From an uncultured Gammaproteobacteria bacterium (GTDB lineage Bacteria; Patescibacteriota; Microgenomatia; UBA10105; UBA927), in the NCBI GenBank assembly GCA_964527425.1, contig CAZGOA010000002.1, positions 73,346 to 137,345 on the forward strand: DNA of 64,000 bases. The letters are read 5' to 3'. Below, one piece after another: positions 154-49,825 of the stretch (positions are counted from its first letter, which is position 1; each line of letters opens with the position of its first letter). The position numbers were made by a program, and so were the translations under genes. Below the pieces are notes generated by a model, which was given only the letters and a program-made list of their open reading frames with translations, had not been told where the DNA came from and did not search any database.

Positions 154-849
154 TCATAGTCTTACCAATTTAGCTTTCACATGCAAACGTTGCCAGTAAG
201 TTCCTGGCGGGACACATGTAACTAAAGTAATATACGCATTATCAATTGGTTGATCTAGCATACTTATATCTTCAGGACCCTTCACTTCTAAATTTTCAAC
301 ACGATACCGATACGTTACCTGATCATAATTGAGAAAAATATCATTACCAACTTCAATCGTAGGTAGTGTAGAAAAAATCGTTTTATAATTCTTTGGATTA
401 AAAAATTGAGGCAGTACAGAATGTCCAAAAATTGCTGCATTCCCTATTTCACCAGGCAAAGCTGTTCCACCATAATGAATGAGTGCTTGATTGAGATCAT
501 TACCACCAATCACTACTTCCGCATTTATAATTCCCAATTGAGGAATAGATAATTTGTATATTCTTATTTTAGTATTTACTTTTTCCTGTGGCTTTAAAGG
601 AAGCCAAATATTAGGATCTGTACTAGTATTACTCGTTAATTGCGTATTGTTATCTTCTTTACTATTCCCAAATCCTATTGGAGAAACAACAGTCGTTAGT
701 AATGGAGCTGCAACTACATGAAATGAGACAATTGGCCAAGACACCCAGCCCAATATGCTCATACCTAAACTCATAATTATTAAAGAAATAAGAATAGACC
801 TCCTCATAGGTGGCCTAGGTCGTTTCTTTACATAACGATAAAGAGGCAT
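154..849 (-). CDS. Sortase family transpeptidase
   Basis: 231 aa with an N-terminal TM anchor and a TLVTC catalytic-cysteine motif near the C-terminus, plus a sortase-like beta-barrel core (LVTCVPPGTY...R). Confidence 0.7.
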   Translation of the reverse strand: MPLYRYVKKRPRPPMRRSILISLIIMSLGMSILGWVSWPIVSFHVVAAPLLTTVVSPIGFGNSKEDNNTQLTSNTSTDPNIWLPLKPQEKVNTKIRIYKLSIPQLGIINAEVVIGGNDLNQALIHYGGTALPGEIGNAAIFGHSVLPQFFNPKNYKTIFSTLPTIEVGNDIFLNYDQVTYRYRVENLEVKGPEDISMLDQPIDNAYITLVTCVPPGTYWQRLHVKAKLVRL

Positions 850-852
850 GTA

Positions 853-3117
853 TTATTGAGCTTCAATAGATACAGATAAATTCTGCTGTCTTGAAGGCAG
901 TTTATTAGGAAATAAAGAAAGTGAAGTTTTAATAGATACACCGCCAACACCATTAATATTCTTAATAATAGATTCAGCTTCTGAAATAGATTTTCCTGCT
1001 ATTTGAGAAGTTAAATCCTTTACCTCAAAAGAAGGAATTAACTTTGCTGAGCCTGTAATGGAAATAGAAATTTCACCATTTTTTTCTACTATTGGTTCAT
1101 TCGTGTTAACCTGAATTGAATCTTGGGATAATCTATATCCTTCGGGTATTTCTGCAGACAATGCTTGATTCATAACTGCTTTAATGTCGTCTTCTTTGTA
1201 GGCTGTTCCCTTAATTAAAATAGTTGCCTTCACAGTTAATTCTTTCGCTTCTTGACCAATTTCGTGCGAAAAAGAACGTTCACTTACTTCTGATGTAATG
1301 GTATCTGATATTAACTGTTCTCCTTCACTTACACCGAATCCATTCTTTGCCTGTTCAACTAATTCTGCAGTTAATTGTTTTACCGCGTTATCTTGATCAG
1401 CCCTGCTTACAACAGTAATATCTTTACTCGTTCCCCCCGTAAATGCTTGATCGTTTCTTGCTGTAGCGATACTTGTCGCAATACCGCTAATACTAAACTC
1501 TCGTCCTGAACTAATATTACCCTGTGTACCAATCTCTTTTGCTGTAACAGTACCATTTGCTTTTCCATACGTAATTGTTCCTGCAGCTAAACTCTCACTA
1601 GCAGACGCTATAGAGATATCGTCATCGAGGAGAAAATCAACTGAACCTGCTGAAACAACAGTACCTTTTTTTATTGTCCGAGGAACCTGAGATTTATTAA
1701 AAATAGTGATAGTACCCTTAGCAGGATCTCCAATAGTTTTTTTACCGGTAACTGTAACTACCTTCTCTCCATTTATTGATTCTTCTTTTTCTAGTCCACT
1801 TACTACATCGCCACTTGTTGTTCCATTTGGTTCAATAACAAACGTTTTTTCAGCTTCAACAGTACGTGGAATAACAGTAATTGCTATTGTTGCTTTAGGA
1901 AGAACAATTGAAAAAAGTATAAATCCAACTATAACTAATAGAAGTGGTACCACCACTAACGAAACCATTTTTATCTTCTTCGATTTATTACCATTCACAC
2001 CATTTCTTTTTGTTAAAACGCCTTGTACTACGTGTTTCATTGAATGTATAAGAGGTGAAAATAGTTGAGTTATTTTGTTTTTAGACGGTTTTTTAGCAGA
2101 TTCAACTATATCCTCTTCATCTACTGGACTAAACCCAATATCCTCAGGAGTTACTGGTTCTATATTGTCATATTCTTCCTCAGGTATTGATACTTGTTCT
2201 GTTTTCAATATTTCTTCAGGAGTTTCTTGTTTAGATGAAATCACTTCATTCTGATCTACTACATCATCAGTCGCAGAATCCAAAGGAAGATTCATATCTT
2301 CTTCAACTGGAGTAGATACCGCTGAATCTTCCATGCTTTCTTCTACTTGTGTCTCGTCATTATCCACATCCATGCTTTCAATTAATTCACTTGCACCTGC
2401 ATGTGACACTGCAGCAGCAGCGCCATCCCCTGGCAAAATTTCTGCTTTTGGAAAATGAAGAAAATTCGCTTTTTGCTGCCAATGATACTGTAAAATATCT
2501 CTTTTAGCATCTTCTAGTGTATGTCTATCCGTGCCATATACTAGTATTCTTGCTGGTAGTATTTCGACATCAGTAAACGTACTTAATGCATCTTCTAAAT
2601 GACCAATCAAATTACCTTCCTTGGCAAAAACTCTTTGACCAATAAAATTGCCAACCTTGTAAAGAGTTACTGTTATCCCCTTACTTGTTATCCCCATAAG
2701 TATCATGCTAGGTGGAACACCTTCTTGTTTTTTATACTGGTGAATGATCGCCTGATAAATAGAAACAAATCCTATCGGGGTCAATTCAAGTAATTTTGTT
2801 AGTTCTTTAATGTGAGGTTTAATTTCTTTCTTAACGTCTCCATCTTCAGTTAGGTATTCGGAAGGAAAACCTAATATTACTTTATTTATATTTTCAGACT
2901 TAGTTAAATCTTCAAGCGTTGATACACATTTATCAACAGCTTCTATCCGTTCCTCCCAAGAATCACTCATCAACTCTTGTGTTACTGCTCCTTCAATAAT
3001 GGCTTCTCCTTGCTTTCCTAAAGCCCAACAGGCTGCGTCAATAGCATCAGGATATATTAAAAGTGTAAGAAAAAGCTCTTGTTGTTTATTCCTTCCACTG
3101 AATGACGGCAGTTTCAT
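853..3117 (-). CDS. Large bitopic membrane protein. It has an N-terminal cytoplasmic domain (possibly actin/ASKHA-like), an acidic D/E-rich linker, a single TM helix and a ~400 aa extracytoplasmic domain. Function unknown.
   Basis: 754 aa ORF. There is a hydrophobic helix (VSLVVVPLLLVIVGFILFSIVLP) at about residue 370, preceded by a D/E-rich low-complexity segment. I could not recognise a catalytic motif. Confidence 0.45.
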   Translation of the reverse strand: MKLPSFSGRNKQQELFLTLLIYPDAIDAACWALGKQGEAIIEGAVTQELMSDSWEERIEAVDKCVSTLEDLTKSENINKVILGFPSEYLTEDGDVKKEIKPHIKELTKLLELTPIGFVSIYQAIIHQYKKQEGVPPSMILMGITSKGITVTLYKVGNFIGQRVFAKEGNLIGHLEDALSTFTDVEILPARILVYGTDRHTLEDAKRDILQYHWQQKANFLHFPKAEILPGDGAAAAVSHAGASELIESMDVDNDETQVEESMEDSAVSTPVEEDMNLPLDSATDDVVDQNEVISSKQETPEEILKTEQVSIPEEEYDNIEPVTPEDIGFSPVDEEDIVESAKKPSKNKITQLFSPLIHSMKHVVQGVLTKRNGVNGNKSKKIKMVSLVVVPLLLVIVGFILFSIVLPKATIAITVIPRTVEAEKTFVIEPNGTTSGDVVSGLEKEESINGEKVVTVTGKKTIGDPAKGTITIFNKSQVPRTIKKGTVVSAGSVDFLLDDDISIASASESLAAGTITYGKANGTVTAKEIGTQGNISSGREFSISGIATSIATARNDQAFTGGTSKDITVVSRADQDNAVKQLTAELVEQAKNGFGVSEGEQLISDTITSEVSERSFSHEIGQEAKELTVKATILIKGTAYKEDDIKAVMNQALSAEIPEGYRLSQDSIQVNTNEPIVEKNGEISISITGSAKLIPSFEVKDLTSQIAGKSISEAESIIKNINGVGGVSIKTSLSLFPNKLPSRQQNLSVSIEAQ

Positions 3118-20147: not shown

Positions 20148-21038
20148 TTATCCTAAATTAGAGCTTTTGAAGATCTTTGGCTTTAACCAATCTGGAGGAG
20201 TTTCTTGAGCTTGATTACTTGGTATAGTGACTGGATTAGCTTCAATTGATTCAGTAATGCCATGTTCCTCTACGGGAATTTCTTCACTAACTGGCATTGA
20301 TACAGTTCTTTGAAACTTTTTTCCTCCTAATCTGGAAACTTCTGCAGCAATCTCAAACGCTTTAGCACTTACATTTGCTGAAGTGAAATTATTTGTTGCC
20401 GAAAAAAGAGCATTTAATACATTTGTAGCCATATCTTGAGTTAACGTGACACCTAAACTCTTAATAACTTCAAAAATAAGCTCAACAGTCGAAGAAACAT
20501 GTGGATCAACGATATTTACTTGTCCATAATTACTATTGTTTGGATGTCTATCTATATTAATGACAGGCTTAGAAGCAAATAGATCTTTATTTGTTTCATA
20601 TACCTTCTTAAGACCACCTAAATGTATAGTATCTACTACAATAATTGCATCTACGTTAGCCCCAGCCTGAGAAAAATGAACTTTATCCTGTGTAAAAGAA
20701 TCAAAACCATCACGTGGTTCAATCACAAGATTAAATGTATTTCCTTCAATATTATAACTAACCTTTTCTATTGAACCCTCGGTGTAATCCAATGAAATCA
20801 CAAAATGCTTTTTGCCTACTTCATTTACAATCTTATTTGCACCAACAAAATGAGAATGTTCAACAGTAATAGGATCAGGAAGTGCAACAGTTACCTTTTT
20901 ACCTAAACTTTGAAGCGCTAAATAGATAGTAAGTAAACTCCCTATACTATCAGCAGTCGGGCGTTCGTGTGACACAATCAATAACGATTGTGCTTGTTCA
21001 ATAATTTTACGTGCAGATTCAAGATGTGTCTGATTCAT
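20148..21038 (-). CDS. nrnA: DHH/DHHA1 phosphoesterase (NrnA-like nanoRNase / pAp phosphatase)
   Basis: DHH-family N-terminal motifs (…LIVSHERPTADSIGS…). It occupies the conserved slot between infB and rpsO. Confidence 0.6.
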   Translation of the reverse strand: MNQTHLESARKIIEQAQSLLIVSHERPTADSIGSLLTIYLALQSLGKKVTVALPDPITVEHSHFVGANKIVNEVGKKHFVISLDYTEGSIEKVSYNIEGNTFNLVIEPRDGFDSFTQDKVHFSQAGANVDAIIVVDTIHLGGLKKVYETNKDLFASKPVINIDRHPNNSNYGQVNIVDPHVSSTVELIFEVIKSLGVTLTQDMATNVLNALFSATNNFTSANVSAKAFEIAAEVSRLGGKKFQRTVSMPVSEEIPVEEHGITESIEANPVTIPSNQAQETPPDWLKPKIFKSSNLG

Positions 21039-33780: not shown

Positions 33781-33995
33781 ATGTAGAAGAAAGTGACCGA
33801 GATTTATTACTCGTTTCAATTTTTACATTTTTAACTGTTTTATCGTGGGTGTTCTTTGAGCTGGTAAAGACTATAAAAACAACTACAGTAAAGGCTCCAG
33901 TTCAGGAAATCATTAAACCGTTGAACCCGACTATAGATACTGCAATACTTGATACATTAAGAGAAAGAAAATCATATTTTCCAGTCAATGAATAA
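33777..33995 (+). CDS. Small membrane protein in the surface operon
   Basis: 72 aa with one TM (LLVSIFTFLTVLSWVFF). It is translationally coupled on both sides. Confidence 0.3.
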   Translation: MNVEESDRDLLLVSIFTFLTVLSWVFFELVKTIKTTTVKAPVQEIIKPLNPTIDTAILDTLRERKSYFPVNE

Positions 33996-35286
33996 ACCAA
34001 TAAGAATCCCTACTATTTTCGCACTCCTCTTCGTAGGAGTTCTTCTCTTAACAATGACATGGATTACTAAAATAATTTCACAGCCAACACAAGCAGACGT
34101 AGGTAAACTTCCTAAAGATATTCAAGTAACAAATGTGTCAGACACATCGTTCACAGTACTCTGGATTACAGAAAAACCAACACGTGGAGTAATCCAAGTA
34201 ACTCCTCCAGATGGTCAAGCATTAACGTTTTATGATGATCATGCAGTGCAATCCCAAAATCAAGAATTTACGACTCATAGCGTAACTGTACGGGGCATGC
34301 AAGCACTCACACAATACACCATCACGTTTCTAAATACTCCAGACAAAACACTTACTATAACGACAGGACCAACGCTTTCACTTAATTCAAATCAATTAGG
34401 TCCTCTCCATGGCTCAGTAAAAAATTCAGATGGAACACCTGCAGTAGGCTCTTTAGTCTATCTTGCTTTAGAAGGAAGCCAAATACTTTCAACGACAGTA
34501 AAGGATTCAGGAAGTTTTCTCATCCCTCTTAATTTATTACGAACAGAAGATACTACCGCATATCTACCTGTTAAAGAAGAACCACTACCTGTTACTCTCA
34601 CGATTATATCTCCAACAGGAGAAAAAACCATAGCAACAACAAATACAGATAACGACTCTCCAGTTCCCGATATAACTTTAGGCCAACCAAACGACTTTAC
34701 ACAATCATCTGTAAAACCAACTCCTGTACTTGCTGAAAAACAATCATCGTTTCAATCCGTACTCGGTACAATAAATACAACAGCAGTAGCTTCTTCTAGT
34801 GTAACTCTGGCAACACCGATTCAAGGAGGAATAGTACGGAGTGAATATCCGTTTATTACTGGCAAAGGTATTCCAGATGAAATAGTAACAATTATTATAG
34901 GAAGCAAAAGTCCTACTGTTGATACTGTACGAGTTAAAAAAGATGGAACCTGGCAATTTACACCAAAAAAAGGCATACCAGCAGGAAACCAAAGTGTTAC
35001 TATCTCTTCGTTTGATGAAAATAAAAATCCAATTTCTATAACGCACCTGTTTCAAATTATGAAAAGTGGTACTCAAGTACTCGGTGATGCAACTCCGTCC
35101 GCAAGTCCAACAATAATTCTTCCAACCCCAATAAGCACAATTAGCGCAACACCAATCCCCACCTTGCTAATAGAACCTACTCCTACAACCGAAATTCCCA
35201 CAACAGCAACGACAGTACCTACCTATATCTTATTAGCAGCAGGAATATCATTAAGTATTATCGGATTACTTGTTTTTATACTGTAA
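33988..35286 (+). CDS. Surface protein. It has an N-terminal signal anchor, an FN3-like domain, a bacterial Ig-like domain and a C-terminal TM anchor.
   Basis: FN3-like segment: VTNVSDTSFTVLWITEKPTRGVIQV…YTITF. Ig-like segment: IVTIIIGSKSPTVDTVRVKKDGTWQFTPKK. C-terminus: …TEIPTTATTVPTYILLAAGISLSIIGLLVFIL. Confidence 0.5.
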   Translation: MNKPIRIPTIFALLFVGVLLLTMTWITKIISQPTQADVGKLPKDIQVTNVSDTSFTVLWITEKPTRGVIQVTPPDGQALTFYDDHAVQSQNQEFTTHSVTVRGMQALTQYTITFLNTPDKTLTITTGPTLSLNSNQLGPLHGSVKNSDGTPAVGSLVYLALEGSQILSTTVKDSGSFLIPLNLLRTEDTTAYLPVKEEPLPVTLTIISPTGEKTIATTNTDNDSPVPDITLGQPNDFTQSSVKPTPVLAEKQSSFQSVLGTINTTAVASSSVTLATPIQGGIVRSEYPFITGKGIPDEIVTIIIGSKSPTVDTVRVKKDGTWQFTPKKGIPAGNQSVTISSFDENKNPISITHLFQIMKSGTQVLGDATPSASPTIILPTPISTISATPIPTLLIEPTPTTEIPTTATTVPTYILLAAGISLSIIGLLVFIL

Positions 35287-35377
35287 GCTATCGGTATACT
35301 TGACGATTGAATACAGCTCTAGTAGCGTAGATAGTAGCTAACACCAGATAGTCTATTATCTCTATTTTTATATTTAC

Positions 35378-36850
35378 ATGGATTTATACGATCAAGCACA
35401 AAAAAATAATGAACCACAATCATCAGATCTGCCTGATCTCTCCTCACTCATGTCACCACCACAAGATAGTCAACCAGTTCAAACCCAACCTCCTCCACCA
35501 CAAATTGAACCTATTTCTGCATTGGATGTTCCCGTAACCCCGCCAATTTCTGATCAACCGACAGTAGATACACCACCAGTACAATCCGCAACGCCTGACA
35601 TTTCGCCTTTACCAACATCTGTTCCACCTATTGCTAATCCAGAAACACCCATGCCCACTCCACAAGAAGTAAAACCCACAGATCTTGCTTCAGAAGCTGT
35701 AATATCGAATTCACCTGATGCCAATACTTTACCTACACCAGATTCCTCCAAGCCAGATACTGTGGCAAACACACCAGATACCCAAACATTTATGCACATG
35801 AGTGATATACCCCGTGACACAGTTCCCTCTTCTCCTGTAACCGAAACAGTCCCATCTCCAGCACCACTGGATAATTCACCACCTAATACTACCCCTCCAG
35901 TACCACCAAATGCAGCGACACCATCCAAAAAGTTCACAATGGGAAGAGGAATTCTCTTTGCAGTACTTGCTCTAGCGATACTTACCCTTCCTGTCATTGG
36001 ATTTTTTGTAACACGACCCAATTCTCAAACAGATACGCGTACCCAAGCTGCAATAAGCAATTGTGCGATCCCTGGCGATCCAGATTGTGATATAACATCA
36101 CCAACTAACACTCCTCCAAGTAGCACATCTAATTCTGCCACAACCCCCGCTACGCAAACACAAACGGTACAATCGCAAGCCGGCTGTAGTTCTTTAGGGA
36201 ATCCATGTGAAAACAACGGCTGCTGTACTGGACTAGTCTGTCAGGGAAATACCGGCAATCGTGTATGTCAACAGCCAGCAACAACTCCTGATCAATGGTG
36301 TGGGGGAACACCCGGTTCTTGTGGCAGACTAATAGCTTTCCATTGCAATAGTGATTTCCCAAGTGGAACACCCGAATCAGGTTGTTTTGATAATCCAATT
36401 TATATCCAAAATAATGATGCAGCAGGCTGGGCTCAGGCACGTGCACATGTTGCCGGCTGTGGTCAAATAGACGTCGTTTGTAAAAGTGGCCCTAAAGAAA
36501 ACCAATTATGTGGAGATTTCGAAATTTTCAAAGATAATTGTGGTCCTGGCTCACAACCGACACCTATTCCAATATCTCAATGTAGAAATTTAAAAATTTA
36601 TCGTGATGGTATAGTTGTAAAAACTAAAGATTACAATACTCTTCGACCACAACAACAAATTCAGTTCGCAGTTGTATCAAACCAAGAGGCAGCACGAGCT
36701 CGATTTTACATTAACGGTAAAGATCCAGTCATATCGACAGAAAAAAATGAAAATGGTGAATTTTTTATTAACTGGGAAATACCAGAAGTAGGTAGTCAGA
36801 GGACATTTACAGTACAAGCAGAAGTTCGAATAAATGGAGTTTGGCAATAA
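35378..36850 (+). CDS. Bitopic surface protein of an unrecognised family, paralogous to 37885-38391 at both the N- and C-terminal modules
   Basis: N-terminal DLPDLSSLMSPPQD motif and a Pro-rich cytoplasmic region. A TM at about residue 195. Cys-rich extracytoplasmic region (GCSSLGNPCENNGCCTGLVCQGN…). C-terminal beta domain ending …RINGVWQ. Confidence 0.5.
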   Translation: MDLYDQAQKNNEPQSSDLPDLSSLMSPPQDSQPVQTQPPPPQIEPISALDVPVTPPISDQPTVDTPPVQSATPDISPLPTSVPPIANPETPMPTPQEVKPTDLASEAVISNSPDANTLPTPDSSKPDTVANTPDTQTFMHMSDIPRDTVPSSPVTETVPSPAPLDNSPPNTTPPVPPNAATPSKKFTMGRGILFAVLALAILTLPVIGFFVTRPNSQTDTRTQAAISNCAIPGDPDCDITSPTNTPPSSTSNSATTPATQTQTVQSQAGCSSLGNPCENNGCCTGLVCQGNTGNRVCQQPATTPDQWCGGTPGSCGRLIAFHCNSDFPSGTPESGCFDNPIYIQNNDAAGWAQARAHVAGCGQIDVVCKSGPKENQLCGDFEIFKDNCGPGSQPTPIPISQCRNLKIYRDGIVVKTKDYNTLRPQQQIQFAVVSNQEAARARFYINGKDPVISTEKNENGEFFINWEIPEVGSQRTFTVQAEVRINGVWQ

Positions 36851-37880
36851 TATGAAAAACATTTCAAAATTCGCTGTGACTCTTGGCTTATTAATTACTT
36901 CTCTATTAATTGCAACGACGGCAGTATTAGTAATTCAATTAAGAAACCGTCAGGCAATAACAGATTTACCACCTGAGGCCGCAGTTGATGCGTGTAAAAT
37001 AGTATTTACGATTGATCCGGTGTGCAAAACTGACTTTACCCTCCTTCCTCCTGAGTCACCAGAAAATACACCAACACCTTCCGTTTTACCAACCGTAACA
37101 ATTTCACCACAATGCACAAGTGCGTGTGATCCTGCAGGAAGAAACCAGCAGTGTCCAACAAATCACAGCTGCGCACCAGCAAACCATCCTAATGCTAATA
37201 CCTGCATATTAACTGCATGTGTACAAAATCCTGATCTTTGTAACAGCACAAGCTGCTCACTATTACCAACACCGCCTTCAACTAATACACCCACCCCACA
37301 AGCTACTAACACTCCAACAGTACGTGCAACAAATACACCGATAAATACACCGACAAATACACAAATTCCTCCAACAAACACTATTGCATCCACTAGTACA
37401 CCAAATCCAACCGCAACACCAAATCCTTTATGCGGATCATCATGCGATCCTGATGGGTCAAGCAATCAATGTCCATCGAATCATACCTGTGCACCAGATA
37501 GTCATCCAAATGCCAATACCTGTATTCTCACTTCGTGTGTACAAAATCCAAGCCTATGCTCAAATAACAGCTGCACAGTCCTCCCAACACCAACAGCTGT
37601 ACGTACGTCAACACCGACTCAACCAATTGCATACTCACCGTCATCTACGCCCATACCAGGCTCATGTAATGCTAACTGTTCGACAGATAGTAATTGTGCA
37701 AACAACTTAGTATGCTCAGGTGGTACGTGCCGCAACCCAGAATGCACTGAGCAAGCTAATTGTTCATGCTCGATACAGCCAACGCCAGAAATTCCTGTAA
37801 CAGGCACAGGAACTACTCTAGTAGGTATTGGTATAATTGTTGGAGGAATACTACTCTTACTGTTAGGATTAGCATTTTAA
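36834..37880 (+). CDS. Cysteine-rich repeat surface protein with a C-terminal EIPVTG sorting signal
   Basis: N-terminal signal anchor. Two ~55 aa 8-Cys repeats (CxxxCDPxGxxxQCPxNHxCAPxxHPNANTCILTxCVQNPxLC) and a third degenerate Cys-rich module. The C-terminus reads PEIPVTGTGTTLVGIGIIVGGILLLLLGLAF. Confidence 0.5.
   Translation: MEFGNNMKNISKFAVTLGLLITSLLIATTAVLVIQLRNRQAITDLPPEAAVDACKIVFTIDPVCKTDFTLLPPESPENTPTPSVLPTVTISPQCTSACDPAGRNQQCPTNHSCAPANHPNANTCILTACVQNPDLCNSTSCSLLPTPPSTNTPTPQATNTPTVRATNTPINTPTNTQIPPTNTIASTSTPNPTATPNPLCGSSCDPDGSSNQCPSNHTCAPDSHPNANTCILTSCVQNPSLCSNNSCTVLPTPTAVRTSTPTQPIAYSPSSTPIPGSCNANCSTDSNCANNLVCSGGTCRNPECTEQANCSCSIQPTPEIPVTGTGTTLVGIGIIVGGILLLLLGLAF
37114..37598 (+). 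repeat. Intragenic duplicated ~165-nt module encoding the 8-Cys domain, two copies at about 37114-37278 and 37431-37598
   Basis: The two nucleotide segments are roughly 75% identical. Compare tgcacaagtgcgtgtgatcctgcaggaag… with tgcggatcatcatgcgatcctgatgggtc…, and …aatacctgcatattaactgcatgtgtacaaaatcc… with …aatacctgtattctcacttcgtgtgtacaaaatcc…. Confidence 0.7.
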
Positions 37881-37884
37881 CACT

Positions 37885-38391
37885 ATGAATACACAGCCAA
37901 ACAACCAAGATTTTCCAGACCTATCAATACTTATGAATACACAACCGGTTCATGATCCGACGCCACCACCAAGTCATGCACAAAAAAAGCGCTCACCAAT
38001 ACTAGGGTTGTCTATCCTGCTACTCATCTTATTTTTTGGTGCAACTAGTGCTATTCTCATCTGGCAAACTCAATCAAGAGAAACTATTGCACGAGTTGAA
38101 ACACAAGCCGAAGAACCCACTGATACAGTGCCAAAATCCTGTAAACGTCTGACCATTTATAAAGATGGAGTCGCTGTAACTGACTATAATACACTTAGAG
38201 CTGGTGACACTGTAACCTTAGCTACTCCCATTGGTTCTGCAGTTAAAGCGAGATTTACTATTAATAAAACAGAGGTAGAATCGACAAAAGTTACCTTTAA
38301 TAATGAGTTCATCGTTGACTATACATTCCCCTTGGATATGCGTGCCGTTCGTATCAAGGTAGAGCGAAAAATAGATGGCATCTGGCAATAA
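37885..38391 (+). CDS. Small bitopic surface protein, paralogue of 35378-36850
   Basis: N-terminal DFPDLSILMNTQP motif. TM (ILGLSILLLILFFGATSAILIW). C-terminal domain CKRLTIYKDGVAVTDYNTLRAGD…KIDGIWQ, alignable with the C-terminus of the 490 aa protein. Confidence 0.5.
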   Translation: MNTQPNNQDFPDLSILMNTQPVHDPTPPPSHAQKKRSPILGLSILLLILFFGATSAILIWQTQSRETIARVETQAEEPTDTVPKSCKRLTIYKDGVAVTDYNTLRAGDTVTLATPIGSAVKARFTINKTEVESTKVTFNNEFIVDYTFPLDMRAVRIKVERKIDGIWQ

Positions 38392-40485: not shown

Positions 40486-42348
40486 ATGATACCGGATTTA
40501 CTATCTCAGTTAAACACATCACAAAAAAAAGCTGCTGAACATATCAAAGGACCTGGTCTAATTTTAGCTGGTGCAGGAAGCGGAAAAACAAAAGTATTAA
40601 CCTATCGAACTGCAAATCTAATTCTTCATCATCGGGTATCTCCATACAATATTCTTCTTATGACATTTACTAACAAAGCAGCAGGAGAAATGAAACATCG
40701 CATTCAAAATCTTCTAACTACCCATCAGCCAAATTTAACATTAGCAACGCCTTATGCAGGAACATTTCATTCTTTTTGTGTAAAGCTGTTGCGTATAGAT
40801 GGACATACAATAACTATTCCAGATAACTTTGTTATTTTTGATGATCAAGATCAAAGTGATGCAGTAAAACAAGTCATGAAAGAGTTAAATCTTTCGACAA
40901 AGAGCTTTAATCCAAATGCGGTAAAACATACTATCTCATCTGCCAAAAATGAACTTATTTCACCTCAGGAGTACGCGTCATTTGCACGAGGGTATTTTCA
41001 GGAAACGGTATCAACTGTCTACTTTGCATATGAAAAGCTATTAAGAGAAAATGCGGCACTGGATTTTGATGACATACTTGTATTTTCAGTTAAGTTGTTT
41101 AAAGAACGATCAGAAATATTACAAAAGTATCAAGAAAAATATCAATACATCATGATCGATGAATATCAGGATACCAATAAAGTTCAGTATGAACTCTCAT
41201 TGTTACTCTCTGGCAGTCACCAGAATATTGCAGTTGTAGGTGATGCCTCCCAAAGTATCTATAGGTGGAGAGGTGCTGATTTTAGAAATATTAATAACTT
41301 CAAAAAAGACTTCCCTGACGTCATCGAATATCATTTAGATCAGAACTATCGTTCGACACAAGTTATTTTAGATGCTGCCTATGGAGTAATTTCAAGGAAT
41401 ACAACACATCCTGTATTAGAACTCTGGACCGATAATAATGGAGGAGACAGCATAACAGTCTATGAGGCAAGAAATGAACATGACGAAGGAAATTTTCTTG
41501 TTCAAACTATTCTTCAATCTGGAAAGCCTTTTACTGATTTTGCGGTCCTATACAGAACAAATGCTCAGTCCCGCAGTATTGAAGAAGCTTTTCTCCATGC
41601 TGGGATCCCCTATATATTAATCGGTGGAACACGCTTTTATGAAAGAAAAGAAATAAAAGACGTATTAGCGTATATACGATATATAGCCAACCCAAAAGAT
41701 ATGATTTCATACAACAGAATCGAAAAGTTAGGAAAAGGGAGACTTAAAAAATTTCTTGATTTTGCACACACTATTCAACAAGATACTATTCTCGTTAACC
41801 ATACTACTCTAGAAATTCTTGATCTTACGTTAGAGGCATCAGATTATTTATCTTTATATGATGCAAATGTAGAAGAAGAAGCATACAGACTTGAAAACAT
41901 TAAAGAATTGCGATCTGTGGCAACCGAATTTCCTGATGTACTTAACTTTCTTGAAAATGTTGCCCTTGTAGAAAGAGAATATGAACCAGATACCGTTAAA
42001 AAAAGAGAAGAAAAGAGATCAGCAGTAACTTTAATGACAATCCATTCCGCCAAAGGACTGGAATTTTCTACTGTTTTTATGATTGGTATGGAAGAAGGAT
42101 TGTTCCCTCATAGTAGAAGTCTTATGGATAAAGAAGAATTAGAAGAAGAAAGGCGCCTTTGTTATGTAGGAATTACAAGAGCAAAATCATCTCTATATTT
42201 AACATATGCAAACCGACGTATGTTTTTTGGAACAAGAACACACAATATGGTGTCTAGATTTATTTCAGAAATTCCAGAAAAAGTTCTTACATTTCAAGTA
42301 TCACTAGGTTATGACAGAGGATTTCGAGAAGAAGACCTGCTAATCTAG
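40486..42348 (+). CDS. pcrA: UvrD/PcrA-family superfamily-1 DNA helicase (short, 620 aa)
   Basis: Helicase motifs Q, I (AGAGSGKTKVLTYR), II (IMIDEYQDTN), III (VGDASQSIYRWRGA), V and VI (LCYVGITRAK). Confidence 0.8.
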   Translation: MIPDLLSQLNTSQKKAAEHIKGPGLILAGAGSGKTKVLTYRTANLILHHRVSPYNILLMTFTNKAAGEMKHRIQNLLTTHQPNLTLATPYAGTFHSFCVKLLRIDGHTITIPDNFVIFDDQDQSDAVKQVMKELNLSTKSFNPNAVKHTISSAKNELISPQEYASFARGYFQETVSTVYFAYEKLLRENAALDFDDILVFSVKLFKERSEILQKYQEKYQYIMIDEYQDTNKVQYELSLLLSGSHQNIAVVGDASQSIYRWRGADFRNINNFKKDFPDVIEYHLDQNYRSTQVILDAAYGVISRNTTHPVLELWTDNNGGDSITVYEARNEHDEGNFLVQTILQSGKPFTDFAVLYRTNAQSRSIEEAFLHAGIPYILIGGTRFYERKEIKDVLAYIRYIANPKDMISYNRIEKLGKGRLKKFLDFAHTIQQDTILVNHTTLEILDLTLEASDYLSLYDANVEEEAYRLENIKELRSVATEFPDVLNFLENVALVEREYEPDTVKKREEKRSAVTLMTIHSAKGLEFSTVFMIGMEEGLFPHSRSLMDKEELEEERRLCYVGITRAKSSLYLTYANRRMFFGTRTHNMVSRFISEIPEKVLTFQVSLGYDRGFREEDLLI

Positions 42349-44812: not shown

Positions 44813-45286
44813 TTACCTTAAGATTGGTATGTTTTTAGGAGTTACCTTATGTTCTAAATATAACTTAATACTCTCTCCATGATCAAAAGCTAAAGACGTA
44901 AAATCGTACTGTAAATCAATAGGTTCCCACTTAATTTCAGGAGTTTCCCAATCTGGTTTACCTGATTGTTTAATAGGTTTCACAATATAATCGATAGAAA
45001 TATTTTGTCTATCTTCATGAGGTCTATCAGGTTTACTATTTATTCTAAATAAACAAACTACTTCACCTTCCCACCCTGTTTCTTCAAATAATTCACGAAC
45101 TACTGCTTGCTCTAACGTTTCATTCCGTTCAACATAACCAGCAGGTAATCCAAACTTACCACCTTCTAGAAAAGACTCATGTCGTTTACCTAATAAAAAT
45201 AAACCATTTTTTTCTACAATTGCATGCACCACTACATGGCGCAAATTATTTGTTGTATTCCCATTCTCAAATGTACACGTCATCAT
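44813..45286 (-). CDS. Nudix hydrolase
   Basis: Nudix box GX5EX7REUXEEXGU is present as GKFGLPAGYVERNETLEQAVVRELFEETGW. Confidence 0.75.
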   Translation of the reverse strand: MMTCTFENGNTTNNLRHVVVHAIVEKNGLFLLGKRHESFLEGGKFGLPAGYVERNETLEQAVVRELFEETGWEGEVVCLFRINSKPDRPHEDRQNISIDYIVKPIKQSGKPDWETPEIKWEPIDLQYDFTSLAFDHGESIKLYLEHKVTPKNIPILR

Positions 45287-45295
45287 AACAATATT

Positions 45296-48244
45296 TTATT
45301 GCCACGCTTCACAAATTAATCTAAACTCGCAAAAATCACATTGTCTCCCTGGTTTAGCAGGAAAATCACTATTTTTCATTTCTTCAGCCGTTTGAATTAT
45401 TTTGTCTTTCGCAGTTTGTAGTTGATCGGCCGTTCTTGTCCCAGAAATTTTTTCTTGGTTTTCCAAAAAATAAAATGAAACAATAACATCTTCAGGTCTA
45501 TAATTATAAATACCCTCGCTTGTAGCTGCCATTGCATAGACAGAAAGTTGCAAATCATTTTTTACATTTTTTTTAACCCTCGTTGACTGACCAGTTTTAT
45601 AATCAATAATTTCGATTTTCTTATCTGGTAAAACGTCTACCCTATCTACTTTCCCTCCGATAGTTAACATTGGTGTTATTTTTAACTTAAATGATTCTTC
45701 AAGTTTTTTAGGAATTTTCCCGGGAACATACCCAGAACGATAAAATTCACTCAAGAGCTTTTCTCCATGTGCCTTCATCTTTGATTCATACGTTTTATTC
45801 CCATATCCAACAGATTTCCATTTTTCTGCATATTTTGTTAATAATTCTTCTTGACTGGGATGTTTGCCATCTTGAACTATTTTATAAAACGCTTCCAATG
45901 TTCTATGAATGGTATCTCCAAATGTCAATGCTGCTGATGGAGGAACAGGTATTTTTATAATATATCGATACTTATACTGTAGAGGACAAGTTAAAAACGT
46001 TTCTATTTGTGAATACGACAAATACGTAAGTTTGTTGAGTTGACTTTCTTTCATACGTTTATGAACTACTGTTTCTTTGGGTGCCCATTCCAGTAAAGAT
46101 AATTGTTTTGTATCTCCAACTGGTTGTGCTTTTGCTACTTCAATAGCTTCCAGTCCTATTGATTCTGCTATAAATGGTGATAATTTCTTTTCCCTCTTTC
46201 CATCACCATAATATTTAGCCGCAGTAAAATATAACTGATCACGAGCTCTTGTCATGGCAACATAAAATAGTCTACGTTCTTCCTGTAAGTGATAATCACC
46301 TGTAGGTAATATTTCAGTAACTAATTCTCTAGGAATAGGAATTTGTTCTTTTCTTTCTGTCGAAGGAAATCGTGCGTCAACTAAATTTACTAAAAATACA
46401 TAAGGAAACTCTAATCCCTTAGATGAATGAACAGTTAATATATTCACAGCATTATGCTGATTCCAGTCATTATTACTTGCGAGCGGTGATTCACCAAGCT
46501 CTAAAGATAAATTAAGCCAATCAACTACAGCAAATACACTTGATTCTTCATGTTCTGCTTCATAGGTTTTTAATCTATCAAAAAATTTAGCGATATTGAG
46601 TGCTTTTTGTTCGTCGCGTTCGTTTTTATACTGTGTTAACTGAGTTAACATCCCTGTTTCTTCAAGAAAATAATATAAAATTTGACCAGCCGTCTCTTTA
46701 CGAATTAAACCTAAGTGTTTTTCTATCATTTGTGTTAAACGCACAATCTTCTCTTTACTTGTTGTATTGAGTAGACGAACGACTTCCTTTTCCTGTTGTT
46801 TACTTGTGGAAGGATTCACAATTAACTGACATACGTCAAATAAAGTCATACCCTGTCTTTTCGCAAAAGCAACAATGATCGCTATGTCTTTAGGATCTAT
46901 ATCTAACCAATTCATAGTAAGTATCCGATAAAATGCAACGGTTTCATCAACTTGAGATAAAACAGTAAGATATGAAATGAGATCTTTTACCTCTGGTTGC
47001 CGCAGTAGTTGTCCGGGTCCTAAAAATTGATATGGTATACTATGCCGTTCTAATGCGCGAGTAAAAGGTAATGCATGATTGTTGGCGCGAACCAAAATAG
47101 CAATATCTTTCCACAATAGAGAAGTGTTTGAGGTAGTTATTTGAATTATTTCTTTTGCAATTGCCTCAGCTTCATTTTCAACTCTATCTGCATAAATAAG
47201 TTTTACATTCTCCCCATTCACTCTTCTCATGCTTTCTAATCGTTTATCTATGTTTTCTGTTATCTCTAAACGATCAGGATTATTATATTGAATCAAATCG
47301 TAAGATCTATCTAAAATCTCTTTCGTTGAACGATAATTTTTTGTAAGTACTACGGTTTTTGTTTCTGGAAAGTGTGTCCGAAATTGAATCATGTTTGAAA
47401 TTGCAGCACCTCTCCATCTATAAATTGCCTGATCATCATCTCCAACAACAGTAATATTTTTACGTTTTCCTGCCAGTGTAATTGCTAGTATATTTTGAGC
47501 ATAATTTGTGTCCTGAAATTCATCAATCAATATATATGTAAATTGTTCTTGATATCTCTTTAAAACATTAGGGCGCTCTCTAAACAGCTTCAGTGAATAT
47601 GATATAAGATCCGCATAATCAAACATTCCTTCTTTTAATTTCATTTGCTCATACAAAACAAACGCATTTGCTAATTCTTTATATTTTTCCAGTTCTTCTT
47701 TTTCTCCTTGAATATCTAACTGTTCATTCTTTATTTTTTTTTCAATCCAATGCACATATTGTTCAGGTGTAACATCCTCATCTTTAAGCCTAGAAAAATG
47801 ATTAATCATACCATCAATAAACTTATTTGGATTTCCTAAAGGACGAAAGTAATTTAGATTAAATTTAAATAAATGAGTACGGAAAAAAAGAATTGTTTCA
47901 GCTTCATTCATTAACCGATACCCAGGGTTTATACCAATATGAACTCCTTCTTGTTTTAATAGTCGGTCACAAAAAGCATGAAACGTAGAAATCCACATTT
48001 GTGTTATTCCATAGGGCATGGCTTGATCTACTCGTTCTTCCATTTCTCTACTCGCTTTTTCTGTAAAGGTAAGAGCAAGAATTTCTGAAGGAGTAGCAAG
48101 CTTAGCACTTATTAAATGTTTTATACGTTCGGTAACAACAGTAGTCTTACCAGTTCCAGCACCAGCAACAATCAATAACGGACCTTCTCCAAACGTAATT
48201 GCAGCGATTTGTTCTTCATTAAATTTATTGTTTAGTGATTTCAT
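45296..48244 (-). CDS. UvrD/Rep-type SF1 helicase fused to a C-terminal RecB/Cas4-like PD-(D/E)xK nuclease domain with a Cys-cluster (AddA/AdnB-like helicase-nuclease)
   Basis: N-terminal helicase motifs (AGAGTGKTTVV; ILIDEFQDTN; VGDDDQAIYRWRGA). C-terminal nuclease motifs (…GKVDRVDVL…EIIDYKTG…LQLSVYAMA…) with a terminal CDFCEFRLIC cysteine motif. Three-Cys motif seen: C-x2-C-x5-C. Confidence 0.75.
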   Translation of the reverse strand: MKSLNNKFNEEQIAAITFGEGPLLIVAGAGTGKTTVVTERIKHLISAKLATPSEILALTFTEKASREMEERVDQAMPYGITQMWISTFHAFCDRLLKQEGVHIGINPGYRLMNEAETILFFRTHLFKFNLNYFRPLGNPNKFIDGMINHFSRLKDEDVTPEQYVHWIEKKIKNEQLDIQGEKEELEKYKELANAFVLYEQMKLKEGMFDYADLISYSLKLFRERPNVLKRYQEQFTYILIDEFQDTNYAQNILAITLAGKRKNITVVGDDDQAIYRWRGAAISNMIQFRTHFPETKTVVLTKNYRSTKEILDRSYDLIQYNNPDRLEITENIDKRLESMRRVNGENVKLIYADRVENEAEAIAKEIIQITTSNTSLLWKDIAILVRANNHALPFTRALERHSIPYQFLGPGQLLRQPEVKDLISYLTVLSQVDETVAFYRILTMNWLDIDPKDIAIIVAFAKRQGMTLFDVCQLIVNPSTSKQQEKEVVRLLNTTSKEKIVRLTQMIEKHLGLIRKETAGQILYYFLEETGMLTQLTQYKNERDEQKALNIAKFFDRLKTYEAEHEESSVFAVVDWLNLSLELGESPLASNNDWNQHNAVNILTVHSSKGLEFPYVFLVNLVDARFPSTERKEQIPIPRELVTEILPTGDYHLQEERRLFYVAMTRARDQLYFTAAKYYGDGKREKKLSPFIAESIGLEAIEVAKAQPVGDTKQLSLLEWAPKETVVHKRMKESQLNKLTYLSYSQIETFLTCPLQYKYRYIIKIPVPPSAALTFGDTIHRTLEAFYKIVQDGKHPSQEELLTKYAEKWKSVGYGNKTYESKMKAHGEKLLSEFYRSGYVPGKIPKKLEESFKLKITPMLTIGGKVDRVDVLPDKKIEIIDYKTGQSTRVKKNVKNDLQLSVYAMAATSEGIYNYRPEDVIVSFYFLENQEKISGTRTADQLQTAKDKIIQTAEEMKNSDFPAKPGRQCDFCEFRLICEAWQ

Positions 48245-48823: not shown

Positions 48824-49825
48824 TTATTTTTCTCCATCAGTTAATTGATTTGTTTTACTCAATTTTTGACCAATCTGTTCTATAGTCTGTGAAACAGTAG
48901 ATGTATTATTATACGCGTTCGTAACATGTTTCGTTAATGTAAAATATTGTTCCGTAAGTTTTACATAATCACCGGAAATAGCTCGTAACAACTTAATAAC
49001 ATCCTGAGTTTTCTTTTCAATTTCTTTTCCTTGAAAACTAACAAGTAATACTTGAAGGTGTGCATATAATGTATTTGGTGACACTGGATATATCCTGTGT
49101 TTTCTTGCTGTTGTCATTAAACTTGGATCAGTAACGATTTCGTAATACACCGCTTCTGAGGGAATATACATGAGAGCAAAATCGAGTGTTCCTTCATCAG
49201 GTAAAATGTATTTATTAGCAATATCTGTTACATGTTTTTTTACGTCACTTGCAAATTCTTTCTTTGCCCGCATCCTCTCAGCTTCTAATTCTGCGGAATG
49301 CATTGCAATATAATTTGACATTGGAAATTTAGCATCAATAGGGAGTATACCAGCATCTGTTTTTATAGCAGCATCAACTTTTACTCCAGTCTTAAAGGCA
49401 TATTGTAAGTGAAACGATTGTTTAGGAAATAATTGTGCAATCATATCAGCCAATACTTCTTCACCTAAACCACCACGTAGCTTAGGGGATTGTAGAAAAG
49501 CCTGAAGATCTTTAATACCACGACCCACTTCAGATAATTCACCCATATTTTTTTTGAGTTCGCCAATAACATGAGCGGCTGAATCTAATCGTTCATTTAA
49601 TTGTTTAGAGTTAGTTACTAATACACGATTTGTCTCAGCTGTAGAACCACGAAGAGTACTTTGTAGAGCTTCATTAGTTCGATCGAGAGAAGTCTGCATT
49701 GTTTTAAGCCATTCAACTAATGCAGCTTGATCATTTCCTTGTGATTGTTTTCTACTAACTAAATAACCAATTATTGCAAAACCAATAAGGATACCAGAAA
49801 GAAGAATAAGGGTATCTGCTTGCAT
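48824..49825 (-). CDS. rmuC: RmuC-family DNA recombination protein
   Basis: N-terminal TM, a coiled coil and a C-terminal RmuC nuclease-like domain. 333 aa. Confidence 0.5.
   Translation of the reverse strand: MQADTLILLSGILIGFAIIGYLVSRKQSQGNDQAALVEWLKTMQTSLDRTNEALQSTLRGSTAETNRVLVTNSKQLNERLDSAAHVIGELKKNMGELSEVGRGIKDLQAFLQSPKLRGGLGEEVLADMIAQLFPKQSFHLQYAFKTGVKVDAAIKTDAGILPIDAKFPMSNYIAMHSAELEAERMRAKKEFASDVKKHVTDIANKYILPDEGTLDFALMYIPSEAVYYEIVTDPSLMTTARKHRIYPVSPNTLYAHLQVLLVSFQGKEIEKKTQDVIKLLRAISGDYVKLTEQYFTLTKHVTNAYNNTSTVSQTIEQIGQKLSKTNQLTDGEK

Follow-up and report, generated by a model that had tools for sequence, protein, structure and literature searches.

A gene in a 64,000-nucleotide stretch of DNA (the 64-kb window hereafter) encodes a 982-residue protein that, judged from its sequence, is probably a vertically inherited housekeeping helicase-nuclease for DNA repair or recombination on a Patescibacteria (Gottesmanbacteria-like) chromosome. 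By its residues and profiles, the protein is a PcrA/UvrD-type SF1A motor followed by a flexible linker (about 60 residues) and a nuclease of the Cas4/AdnA/AddB type, with catalytic residues intact in both motor and nuclease, and the nuclease is predicted to be stapled by a four-cysteine iron-sulfur cluster. The first-pass annotation had considered both end resection and anti-phage defence as roles for this protein, and the housekeeping reading is favoured by the kept gene order, the wide spread of orthologues, the presence of inteins and the replication and recombination genes nearby. The gene is already annotated and widely conserved and is no new class of system; an identical protein is found in public assemblies (P0001, on a 132,992-bp contig). 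At present it stands as a well-conserved, annotated, uncharacterised repair gene.

Domain organization and conserved residues

The Pfam domains of the protein follow in the order PF00580, PF13361 and PF12705, with E-values far beyond those of chance matches (Table 1). The complete SF1A motor and the C-terminal nuclease with DYK, QxxxY and terminal cysteine motifs, both described in the first-pass annotation, are present in the translation: the UvrD-helicase and UvrD_C domains carry intact motor motifs, and EIIDYKTG, QLSVY and CDFCEFRLIC are all in place. Helicase motifs III to VI are likewise intact and invariant in 38 aligned orthologues, as is D867 of nuclease motif II, which lies in GGKVDRVD upstream of EIIDYKTG. 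An arrangement of one N-terminal and three C-terminal cysteines binds Fe4S4 in Cas4, AddB and AdnA (PMC12094033). The fourth cysteine, C753, was absent from the earlier list of motifs.

Table 1. Position of the helicase-nuclease gene, its domains and motifs, and selected neighbouring genes in the 64-kb window.
Feature	Position	Strand	Basis or remark
Helicase-nuclease gene	45296..48244	-	ATG start; 982 aa plus stop; ORF list and translation
UvrD/REP helicase N-terminal domain (1A/1B), residues 9-293	47366..48220	-	PF00580 UvrD-helicase, E 7.8e-76 (Pfam)
UvrD-like helicase C-terminal domain (2A/2B), residues 298-677	46214..47353	-	PF13361 UvrD_C, E 1e-58 (Pfam)
Linker, motor to nuclease, residues 678-741	46022..46213	-	Without Pfam domain; AF2 pLDDT <50 at about 722-737
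PD-(D/E)XK nuclease domain, Cas4/AdnA/AddB type, residues 742-979	45308..46021	-	PDDEXK_1 (PF12705), E 7e-41 (Pfam)
Walker A GAGTGKT, residues 28-34 (K33)	48143..48163	-	Invariant in 38 orthologues
Motif II / Walker B DEFQD, residues 241-245	47510..47524	-	Invariant columns of alignment A1; visible in BLASTP alignments
Cys753 (FLTCPLQY), N-terminal ligand of predicted 4-Cys Fe-S site	45986..45988	-	Invariant in 38 orthologues
EIIDYKTG, residues 878-885, catalytic D881-x-K883 (motif III)	45590..45613	-	D881, Y882 and K883 invariant in 38 orthologues
QLSVY, residues 899-903 (Q899xxxY903)	45536..45550	-	Q and Y invariant in 38 orthologues
CDFCEFRLIC, residues 969-978 (C969, C972, C978), three C-terminal predicted Fe-S ligands	45311..45340	-	All invariant in 38 orthologues
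PcrA/UvrD-like helicase gene, 620 aa	40486..42348	+	TIGR01073 pcrA, 708 bits
Nudix hydrolase gene	44813..45286	-	PF00293, E 2.8e-14; 9 nt downstream of helicase-nuclease gene, same strand
RmuC-family gene	48824..49825	-	PF02646, E 1.3e-48; upstream of helicase-nuclease gene, same strand

In sequence, the motor is closest to UvrD/PcrA (PcrA, E 1.1e-81), and its best match among helicase-nucleases is AdnB (E 7.6e-48); the best Foldseek matches of the motor fold are UvrD and PcrA, with E about 1e-36. Profile matches of the nuclease comprise AdnA and AdnB (E 5.5e-10), ACE1 (3e-9), Cas4 SSO0001 (0.003) and AddB (0.004). The full-length AF2 model has a pTM of 0.50 and the geometry between its domains is unreliable, so the choice of strand by the nuclease (displaced 5' or tracked 3') was not read from it.

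Distribution of the family and genomic neighbourhood

Searches with three family members gave at least 8000, at least 8000 and 7947 matches, and the best 120 matches for each query have a common architecture, intein-bearing forms apart. Identity among these best 120 is 56-100% in Microgenomates, 67-100% in Parcubacteria and 72-100% in Aminicenantes/Acidobacteriota (one query each). The phyletic distribution, proposed earlier as a check, comprises in these searches full-length orthologues throughout Patescibacteria and also in Aminicenantes/Acidobacteriota, where one orthologue aligns with the 982-aa protein over its full length at 37% identity; the family reaches beyond minimal genomes. A contig search with the single protein found at least one locus, in Nealsonbacteria (39% identity). 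Among the matches listed, many orthologues contain inteins in the motor, as is typical for conserved proteins of replication and repair. Phage records hold no full-length relative; matches there are to the helicase part alone.

Within the window are core genes for AlaRS, FtsK, BipA, RNase J, PNPase, IF2, NusA, DnaK/J, MurJ and MetRS. The order MetRS-TatD...RmuC-X-[helicase-nuclease]-FemAB-FemAB-PcrA-TIM-LytR is kept in relatives at 60-63% identity, and the syntenic relatives include contigs of 1.09 and 1.22 Mb. It had been asked whether the gene sits in a variable island; instead it belongs to a core chromosomal block whose gene order is kept at about 60% identity.

The second helicase, Nudix and RmuC genes that had been reported nearby are all found where the first reading placed them. 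The first of these is the ordinary SF1A helicase of the genome by its sequence, separate from the fusion enzyme, with which it has 28% identity over the motor region only, and it is syntenic in Gottesmanbacteria-like relatives. It lies 3 kb from the fusion gene. The Nudix gene is probably co-transcribed here with the helicase-nuclease gene. It is absent from the corresponding position in four relatives (L003, L008, L009 and L010) and accounts for 2 of the 150 neighbours of orthologues; since the only genomes in which it adjoins the gene are this one and its closest relatives, it was dropped as a functional partner. RmuC is a recurrent neighbour and a possible functional partner: 15 of 45 loci, among them loci of relatives with 38-46% identity, have it no more than four genes away from the orthologue, and in L010 the RmuC gene overlaps the start of the helicase-nuclease gene. 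Other neighbours across the 45 loci are FemAB (9), RuvB/RarA (4) and DciA (3), together with XseA and GreA; they are housekeeping or replication and recombination genes, and families of restriction-modification or defence do not recur among them. The recurrence of RmuC, RarA, RuvB and DciA suggests a housekeeping role at replication forks and in recombination. A promoter and terminator scan was uninformative because shuffled sequence yielded at least as many sites.

Comparison with known helicase-nucleases

Fusions of a UvrD helicase with a Cas4-like (pfam12705) nuclease were described in 2017 by Hudaiberdiev et al. (PMC5704561), where CPR is mentioned only for solo Cas4. They have the same order as the protein studied here, an N-terminal UvrD-like SF1 helicase followed by a C-terminal Cas4-like PD-(D/E)XK nuclease, and share with it the four-cysteine pattern (1 + 3) and the D...DxK and QxxxY motifs. 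An archaeal plasmid fusion from Methanomethylovorans (L007) aligns over both parts (the motors are 28% identical, the nucleases 26%), and pairwise alignments with plasmid and archaeal fusions are collinear over the full length at 24-28% identity. The CPR nuclease HMM gives the L007 nuclease 122 bits and the A2 nuclease profile gives AdnA about 42 bits, these being different profiles. The likeness to the published fusions rests on domain order, motifs and pairwise alignments. Their published contexts are of defence type (many, not all) or non-conserved, whereas the gene here is part of a housekeeping block that is conserved, contains genes for replication and recombination nearby and lacks type III restriction-modification or Dcm/Vsr genes.

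In mycobacterial AdnAB (PDB 6PPR/6PPU/9NP6), each chain has the motor followed by the nuclease, as here, and the 1 + 3 cysteine Fe-S "staple" of AdnA is predicted in the fusion protein too. AdnAB is a heterodimer of paralogous chains encoded side by side, whereas none of the 61 loci has an adjacent paralogue; moreover, a fully intact motor of the lead (AdnB) type and an Fe-S nuclease of the AdnA type, which are on separate subunits in AdnAB, are here joined. This comparison rests on PDB profile and fold matches, and a Nonomuraea record (L013) was left out because it is unannotated with overlapping high-GC ORFs. In B. subtilis AddAB (PDB 3U44/4CEI), AddA has an SF1A motor and a C-terminal PD-(D/E)XK nuclease, as does the fusion protein, and AddB supplies an Fe-S nuclease for cutting the 5' strand, a nuclease type also common to the fusion. 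AddA is, however, about 250 residues longer, and the fusion scores 186 and 132 bits on the AddA equivalog models TIGR02785 and TIGR02784, against cut-offs of 708 and 861. AddAB also has a Chi-scanning inactivated helicase domain and an AddB gene, neither of which was found in the 64-kb window. Publications that deal with AddAB or RecBCD in CPR/Patescibacteria were not found in the literature search.

PcrA, UvrD and Rep consist of the motor alone, to which the fusion adds a nuclease domain of about 300 residues, and its scores on the corresponding equivalog models are 437 (pcrA, cut-off 911), 346 (uvrD, cut-off 1144) and 386 bits (rep, cut-off 951). Cas4 and ACE1 are stand-alone Fe-S nucleases of 200-280 aa without a motor, located beside CRISPR-cas or Argonaute genes. 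On the TIGR00372 cas4 model, the fusion protein reaches 42.5 bits against a cut-off of 65.

Proposed mechanism

The motor may load at a DNA end or at a stalled or broken fork, and would then move 3' to 5' on one strand by ATP hydrolysis while unwinding the duplex. The tethered Fe-S nuclease would have single-stranded DNA threaded through a narrow channel and would then cut it; in AdnA and AddB, it is the 5' strand that is threaded through such a channel and cut (PMC12094033). By analogy with these two proteins, the strand cut would most likely be the displaced 5' strand, leaving a 3' tail for RecA. Alternatively, the nuclease may receive the tracked 3' strand as it leaves its own motor, as in RecB, AddA and AdnB. 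No obvious Chi-type control would be involved. With unwinding by the motor and cutting by the tethered nuclease, one chain or a homo-oligomer would do the job that AddAB and AdnAB divide between two subunits. We infer the helicase polarity, the strand preference of the nuclease, the Fe-S content and the oligomeric state.

A more specific version of this scheme is tentative: a partner-less, single-chain machine for double-strand-break resection, in which a lead-type 3' to 5' motor and an Fe-S nuclease cutting the 5' strand make a 3' tail without Chi, might carry out most or all of the end processing in CPR bacteria and some Acidobacteriota, possibly together with RmuC. If the enzyme needs no partner, no simpler bacterial helicase-nuclease that prepares broken DNA for RecA would be known, and it would show how ultra-small CPR genomes perform recombinational repair. 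It would also serve as a compact model for a coupling of motor and Fe-S nuclease that needs neither a second subunit nor a Chi sequence.

Alternative roles

The suggestion that the protein could be an anti-phage nuclease-helicase is not supported, and a role against phages or plasmids, whether alone or in support of a defence system, is very improbable. The PADLOC models for GajB and DRT-helicase match the protein, and some DRT systems contain RmuC-like proteins (PADLOC); these matches were discounted as evidence of defence because they are generic to UvrD and the neighbouring housekeeping PcrA scores higher on the same models. In Gabija, GajB adjoins GajA (an OLD-family ATPase/TOPRIM nuclease), whereas there is no GajA-like neighbour here. 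A defence role has been proposed for UvrD-Cas4-like fusions that adjoin type III restriction-modification or Dcm/Vsr genes in other lineages (PMC5704561), yet no GajA, Mod/Res, type III restriction-modification, Dcm/Vsr or CRISPR was found in the window or among 150 neighbours from 43 CPR-type loci, nor do restriction-modification or defence families recur among the latter. The window has no CRISPR repeat array and the neighbours include no cas genes. Plasmid relatives adjoin multiubiquitin/ThiF/DUF6527 genes, but they are only 24-28% identical to the protein, and those beside ubiquitin-like genes lack the catalytic D...DxK. The gene order kept within a core block, the 56-100% identity among the best 120 relatives (several with inteins) and the lack of full-length relatives in phage records also argue against defence. 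Nhi-type immunity proteins have an N-terminal nuclease followed by an SF1 helicase. The order here is the reverse, and no Nhi model is among the best 25 of the 62 PADLOC families matched. The earlier remark took a C-terminal nuclease as a departure from the order of known defence proteins; such an order is not unusual, as it occurs in RecB, AddA, AdnA, AdnB and the UvrD-Cas4-like fusions.

Within repair itself, the fusion could be one subunit of an AddAB/AdnAB-like heteromer whose partner, bearing a degenerate helicase and another nuclease, is encoded elsewhere; we consider this quite unlikely. A different resection system, such as RecJ plus a helicase, may also be encoded in another part of the genome. 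Every resection machine of this kind that has been characterised in bacteria is a heteromer (PMC5030088). The nuclease profile matches both AdnA and AdnB, some orthologues have weak ADDB_N (PF21445) matches, and the sequence inspected spans 64 kb here and 10 kb to either side of the gene in relatives. Genes for the subunits of the structurally solved AddAB, AdnAB and RecBCD usually lie next to each other. That no AddB/RecC-like partner adjoins the gene, as first noted, was borne out and extends to the whole window, and none of 61 loci has a second large nuclease-bearing gene (AddB-, AdnA- or RecC-like) within 10 kb. Each locus has one fused gene, and the only other UvrD motor nearby is the PcrA without a nuclease. 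When representatives were searched with the nuclease profile, the long top matches examined with Pfam were all UvrD fusions or tandem-nuclease proteins, and none was AddB-like with a degenerate motor. Furthermore, every catalytic motif of the motor is intact, so it would act as the lead motor, but the nuclease attached to it is of the Fe-S type that AddAB and AdnAB have on the non-lead subunit. An unlikely alternative to the housekeeping end- or fork-processing enzyme favoured here is a bacterial functional counterpart of Dna2 or MGME1 that works mainly at replication forks instead of two-ended breaks and would remove 5' flaps or process reversed or stalled forks, possibly with RmuC. This fits the linkage of RmuC in 15 of 45 loci and the recurrence of DciA (a helicase loader), RarA/MgsA, RuvB and XseA, but these associations are weak beyond the Microgenomates block and are phylogenetically non-independent. 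Such activity at forks overlaps with end resection rather than excluding it, and Dna2 has an SF1B (5' to 3') motor with an N-terminal nuclease, whereas the protein here combines an SF1A motor with a C-terminal nuclease.

Domain architecture and catalytic sites

The helicase-nuclease gene is a real ORF, with an ATG start and a translation of 982 aa. All of the motifs quoted in the first-pass annotation (EIIDYKTG, QLSVY and CDFCEFRLIC) were found in this translation, together with a fourth cysteine, and the C-terminus also has weak DUF2800 and Cas4 matches. The protein has an intact SF1A motor and an intact Fe-S-type PD-(D/E)XK nuclease joined by a flexible linker. The domain arrangement in the full-length model (pLDDT 78.7) is less reliable, with a pTM of 0.50 and pLDDT below 50 in the linker (about residues 722-737).

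Locations of features in the window, in the target protein and in related loci (L005, L006, L012, L014) outside the window
Feature	Location	Strand	Detail
Helicase-nuclease (target)	45296-48244	-	982 aa
UvrD-helicase	target residues 9-293		Pfam E 7.8e-76
UvrD_C	target residues 298-677		Pfam E 1e-58
PDDEXK_1	target residues 742-979		Pfam E 7e-41
EIIDYKTG	target residues 878-885		translation
QLSVY	target residues 899-903		translation
CDFCEFRLIC	target residues 969-978		translation
Fourth cysteine, in FLTCPLQY	target C753		translation
PcrA-like helicase	40486-42348	+	620 aa, scored against the pcrA model
Nudix gene	44813-45286	-	9 nt downstream of target, same strand
RmuC gene	48824-49825	-	upstream of target, same strand
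DHH-family protein	20148-21038	-	296 aa
ORF with weak Baseplate_J-like match	853-3117	-	754 aa
Sortase gene	154-849	-	adjoins the 754-aa ORF
Four consecutive ORFs	33988-38391	+	432, 490, 348 and 168 aa
Mesorhizobium plasmid relative	L005 6431-9784		distant relative
Klebsiella plasmid relative	L006 6314-9709		distant relative
Leptolyngbya plasmid relative	L014 5317-8715		distant relative
Stand-alone PDDEXK_1 (solo-Cas4-like) gene	L012 15358-15966	+	202 aa

Conservation was assessed in an alignment of 38 full-length orthologues, including 20 of Microgenomates type (61-71% identity) and 17 of Parcubacteria type (40-42%), using true target numbering with Met1 counted. Invariant motor residues are Walker A (G28-A-G-x-G-K33-T34), DEFQD (241-245), motif III (D269, D270, Q272, Y275 and R278), Y304-R305, H606, K609-G-L-E612 and T665-R666. 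In the nuclease, C753, Q756-Y757, H780, D867, D881-Y-K883, Q899, Y903, C969, C972 and C978 are invariant. This invariance indicates that both predicted activities and the four-cysteine site are under strong selection. In Cas4 and the nuclease domains of AddAB/AdnAB, an Fe4S4 “iron staple” is bound by one N-terminal and three C-terminal cysteines (PMC12094033).

Relatives of the motor and the nuclease

In sequence comparisons, PcrA (E 1.1e-81) and UvrD are nearest to the motor, followed by AdnB (7.6e-48) and AddA (7.6e-26). The target reached no NCBIfam equivalog cut-off (pcrA 437 vs 911; addA_Gpos 186 vs 708). Foldseek with the full-length model returned UvrD and PcrA first and then AddA, AdnB, AdnA, AddB and RecB. 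When only the nuclease domain was profiled against PDB chains, AdnA and AdnB were the best matches. According to the ACE1 paper (PMC12094033), AdnA and AddB act on unwound DNA and cut its 5' strand, which passes through a narrow channel.

Comparisons of the nuclease (the two figures of the second comparison are unlabelled)
Enzyme	Profile E	Second comparison
AdnA	5.5e-10	19.7; 240 (AdnA nuclease)
AdnB	5.5e-10	
ACE1 (Argonaute-associated Cas4-family enzyme)	3e-9	16.7; 219
Cas4 SSO0001	0.003	
AddB	0.004	10.5; 237
Dna2		16.6; 225
Cas4		13.3; 177
RecE		12.9; 180
MGME1		12.7; 165
AddA		10.7; 168
RecB		10.0; 172

Distribution and known architecture

The fusion architecture is already known, as both a published branch and collinear plasmid relatives attest. 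The largest pfam12705 branch consists of Cas4-like nucleases fused to UvrD-like helicases, reported to be monophyletic and found in many bacteria and mesophilic archaea, either beside type III restriction-modification or Dcm/Vsr genes or as stand-alone genes, and an ancillary role in defence or repair has been proposed (Hudaiberdiev et al. 2017, PMC5704561). In a plasmid collection, full-length collinear relatives share just 24-28% identity with the target. All nuclease motifs are retained in the plasmid protein of Methanomethylovorans; those of Mesorhizobium, Klebsiella and Leptolyngbya (1117-1132 aa) still have the four cysteines but lack D...DxK. The Mesorhizobium and Klebsiella genes are followed by multiubiquitin and ThiF-E1 genes, with DUF6527 also present in Klebsiella; the neighbours in Leptolyngbya are unannotated.

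The target, an orthologue from Nealsonbacteria and a relative of high GC served as queries against a collection of 5.8 billion proteins, giving at least 8000, at least 8000 and 7947 matches, respectively. The 120 proteins listed per search share a common architecture, and most are 930-1050 aa long; those with inteins reach about 1330-1420 aa. Those listed for the target are named Gottesmanbacteria or Patescibacteria (56-100% identity), those for the second query Nealsonbacteria, Staskawiczbacteria, Paceibacterota or Parcubacteria (67-100%), and those for the third Aminicenantes or Acidobacteriota (72-100%); P0241, the cluster to which the third query belongs, has 37% full-length identity to the target. 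The family is thus not rare, and it extends beyond minimal genomes. Public names include “ATP-dependent helicase”, “UvrD-helicase domain-containing protein”, “PD-(D/E)XK nuclease family protein”, “DNA helicase II / PcrA” and, once, “Cas4”. Within the known architecture, the CPR/Aminicenantes proteins make up a tightly conserved putative branch in a housekeeping context, and the target is a further member of a bioinformatically described, biochemically uncharacterised kind.

Many orthologues contain an intein matching PF14890, in some cases together with a Hint domain, which brings the whole protein to about 1170-1420 aa (P0107, P0109, P0128, P0130, P0159, P0186, P0203, P0206, P0215, P0222, P0391 and P0465). 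It lies in the motor directly after motif III, near residue 280, in the two orthologues checked.

The nuclease profile was run exhaustively with HMMER against 1.84 billion representatives and matched 1,366 clusters at E<=1e-30, rising to 10,286 at E<=1e-10. The nuclease is at the C-terminal end in the full-length matches listed, and every long match scanned with Pfam has a UvrD motor except for a few proteins of 3-5 tandem nuclease domains; no AddB-like architecture was found among these long matches. The tandem proteins, P0361 (1297 aa), P0362, P0363 (1047 aa) and P0367 (814 aa), consist of diverged Cas4-like Fe-S nuclease domains, and all those scanned lack a helicase. Reading of the P0361 and P0363 sequences showed a separate cysteine motif and DxK in most of their copies. 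We know of no description of this tandem architecture.

Genomic setting and neighbours

The window belongs to the ordinary core chromosome of a Patescibacteria genome, with a low GC of about 35%. It encodes AlaRS, FtsK, BipA, RNase J, PNPase, IF2, NusA, DnaJ/DnaK/HrcA, MurJ, PilO, CorA, LytR, FemAB, MetRS, TatD and glycosyltransferases, and no tRNA genes or CRISPR-like array were found in its 64 kb. The exact target protein is also encoded on a 132,992-bp assembly contig. The PcrA-like helicase, Nudix and RmuC genes named in the first-pass annotation are all present, with a small cupin gene on the opposite strand between RmuC and the target. Four relatives with 59-63% protein identity, of which two lie on 1.09- and 1.22-Mb contigs, have kept the gene order: UbiA, GT4, ..., TatD, MetRS, ..., RmuC, a small variable gene, the helicase-nuclease, a variable gene, FemAB, FemAB, PcrA, TIM and LytR. 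The target thus lies in a core block rather than a variable island. Among the loci compared, the adjacent Nudix gene is confined to the window's own lineage.

A metagenome scan added 80 loci, and local HMMs of the motor and nuclease located a fused gene at 61 loci. As had been noted for the window, no partner is adjacent: at none of the 61 does another large gene with a nuclease domain lie within 10 kb, and the sole second UvrD motor is the PcrA of the Gottesmanbacteria-like block. Clustering of neighbours at 45 CPR-type loci gave RmuC (15 loci), FemAB (9), MetRS (6), phosphoglucomutase (5), RuvB/RarA (4), DciA (3) and DivIC (3). RmuC lies within four genes in its 15 loci (the window, L003, L008-L010, L015-L018, L024, L027, L028, L033, L037 and L043), including relatives at only 38-46% identity, with varying position and orientation; at L010 it overlaps the helicase-nuclease start codon. 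The two may form a functional pairing, two nucleases with one motor. In Parcubacteria the gene adjoins GreA, RarA (MgsA) and XseA, or RarA. At the Parcubacteria locus L012, the solo-Cas4-like gene lies 2.4 kb downstream of the orthologue, beside greA.

Proposed function

Motors of the UvrD/PcrA type travel along single-stranded DNA in the 3'->5' direction. Single strands are threaded by nucleases like those of AdnA, AddB, Cas4, ACE1 and Dna2, which in AddAB and AdnAB cut the displaced 5' strand. In the simplest model, a single chain or homo-oligomer would unwind from a DNA end or broken fork, the tethered nuclease would degrade the 5' strand and a 3' tail would be left for RecA. Alternatively, the C-terminal nuclease of the same chain could receive the tracked 3' strand, which is the arrangement in RecB, AddA and AdnB.

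The first-pass annotation had offered both end resection, by what might be the sole such enzyme of a minimal genome, and anti-phage activity; this interpretation is supported in part. Housekeeping end-processing is favoured by the conserved gene order and by the neighbours: the repeated linkage with RarA, RuvB, DciA and RmuC, which is itself predicted to be a nuclease, suggests a housekeeping role at replication forks and in recombination. There is no support for the anti-phage reading: PADLOC gave only generic RmuC and UvrD matches among 150 neighbours, and the neighbourhood has no defence-island signature.

Other features of the window

With 708 bits, the PcrA-like helicase stays below the pcrA cut-off of 911, and the usual C-terminal PcrA/UvrD extension seems to be absent; relatives have this short form too (614-625 aa as called), in a syntenic position. 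The DHH-family protein (NrnA/RecJ-like phosphoesterase), encoded between the IF2 gene and a 130-aa ORF with PNPase farther along, is too short for canonical RecJ and bears on the genome's other end-processing nucleases. The 754-aa ORF has only its weak Baseplate_J-like match (E 5e-5). Downstream of the PilO-like gene, the four consecutive ORFs have a GC of 0.40-0.42 vs about 0.34 for most of the window; a Pfam scan of the 432-, 490- and 348-aa ORFs gave essentially no match, and the four may be pilus or surface proteins.
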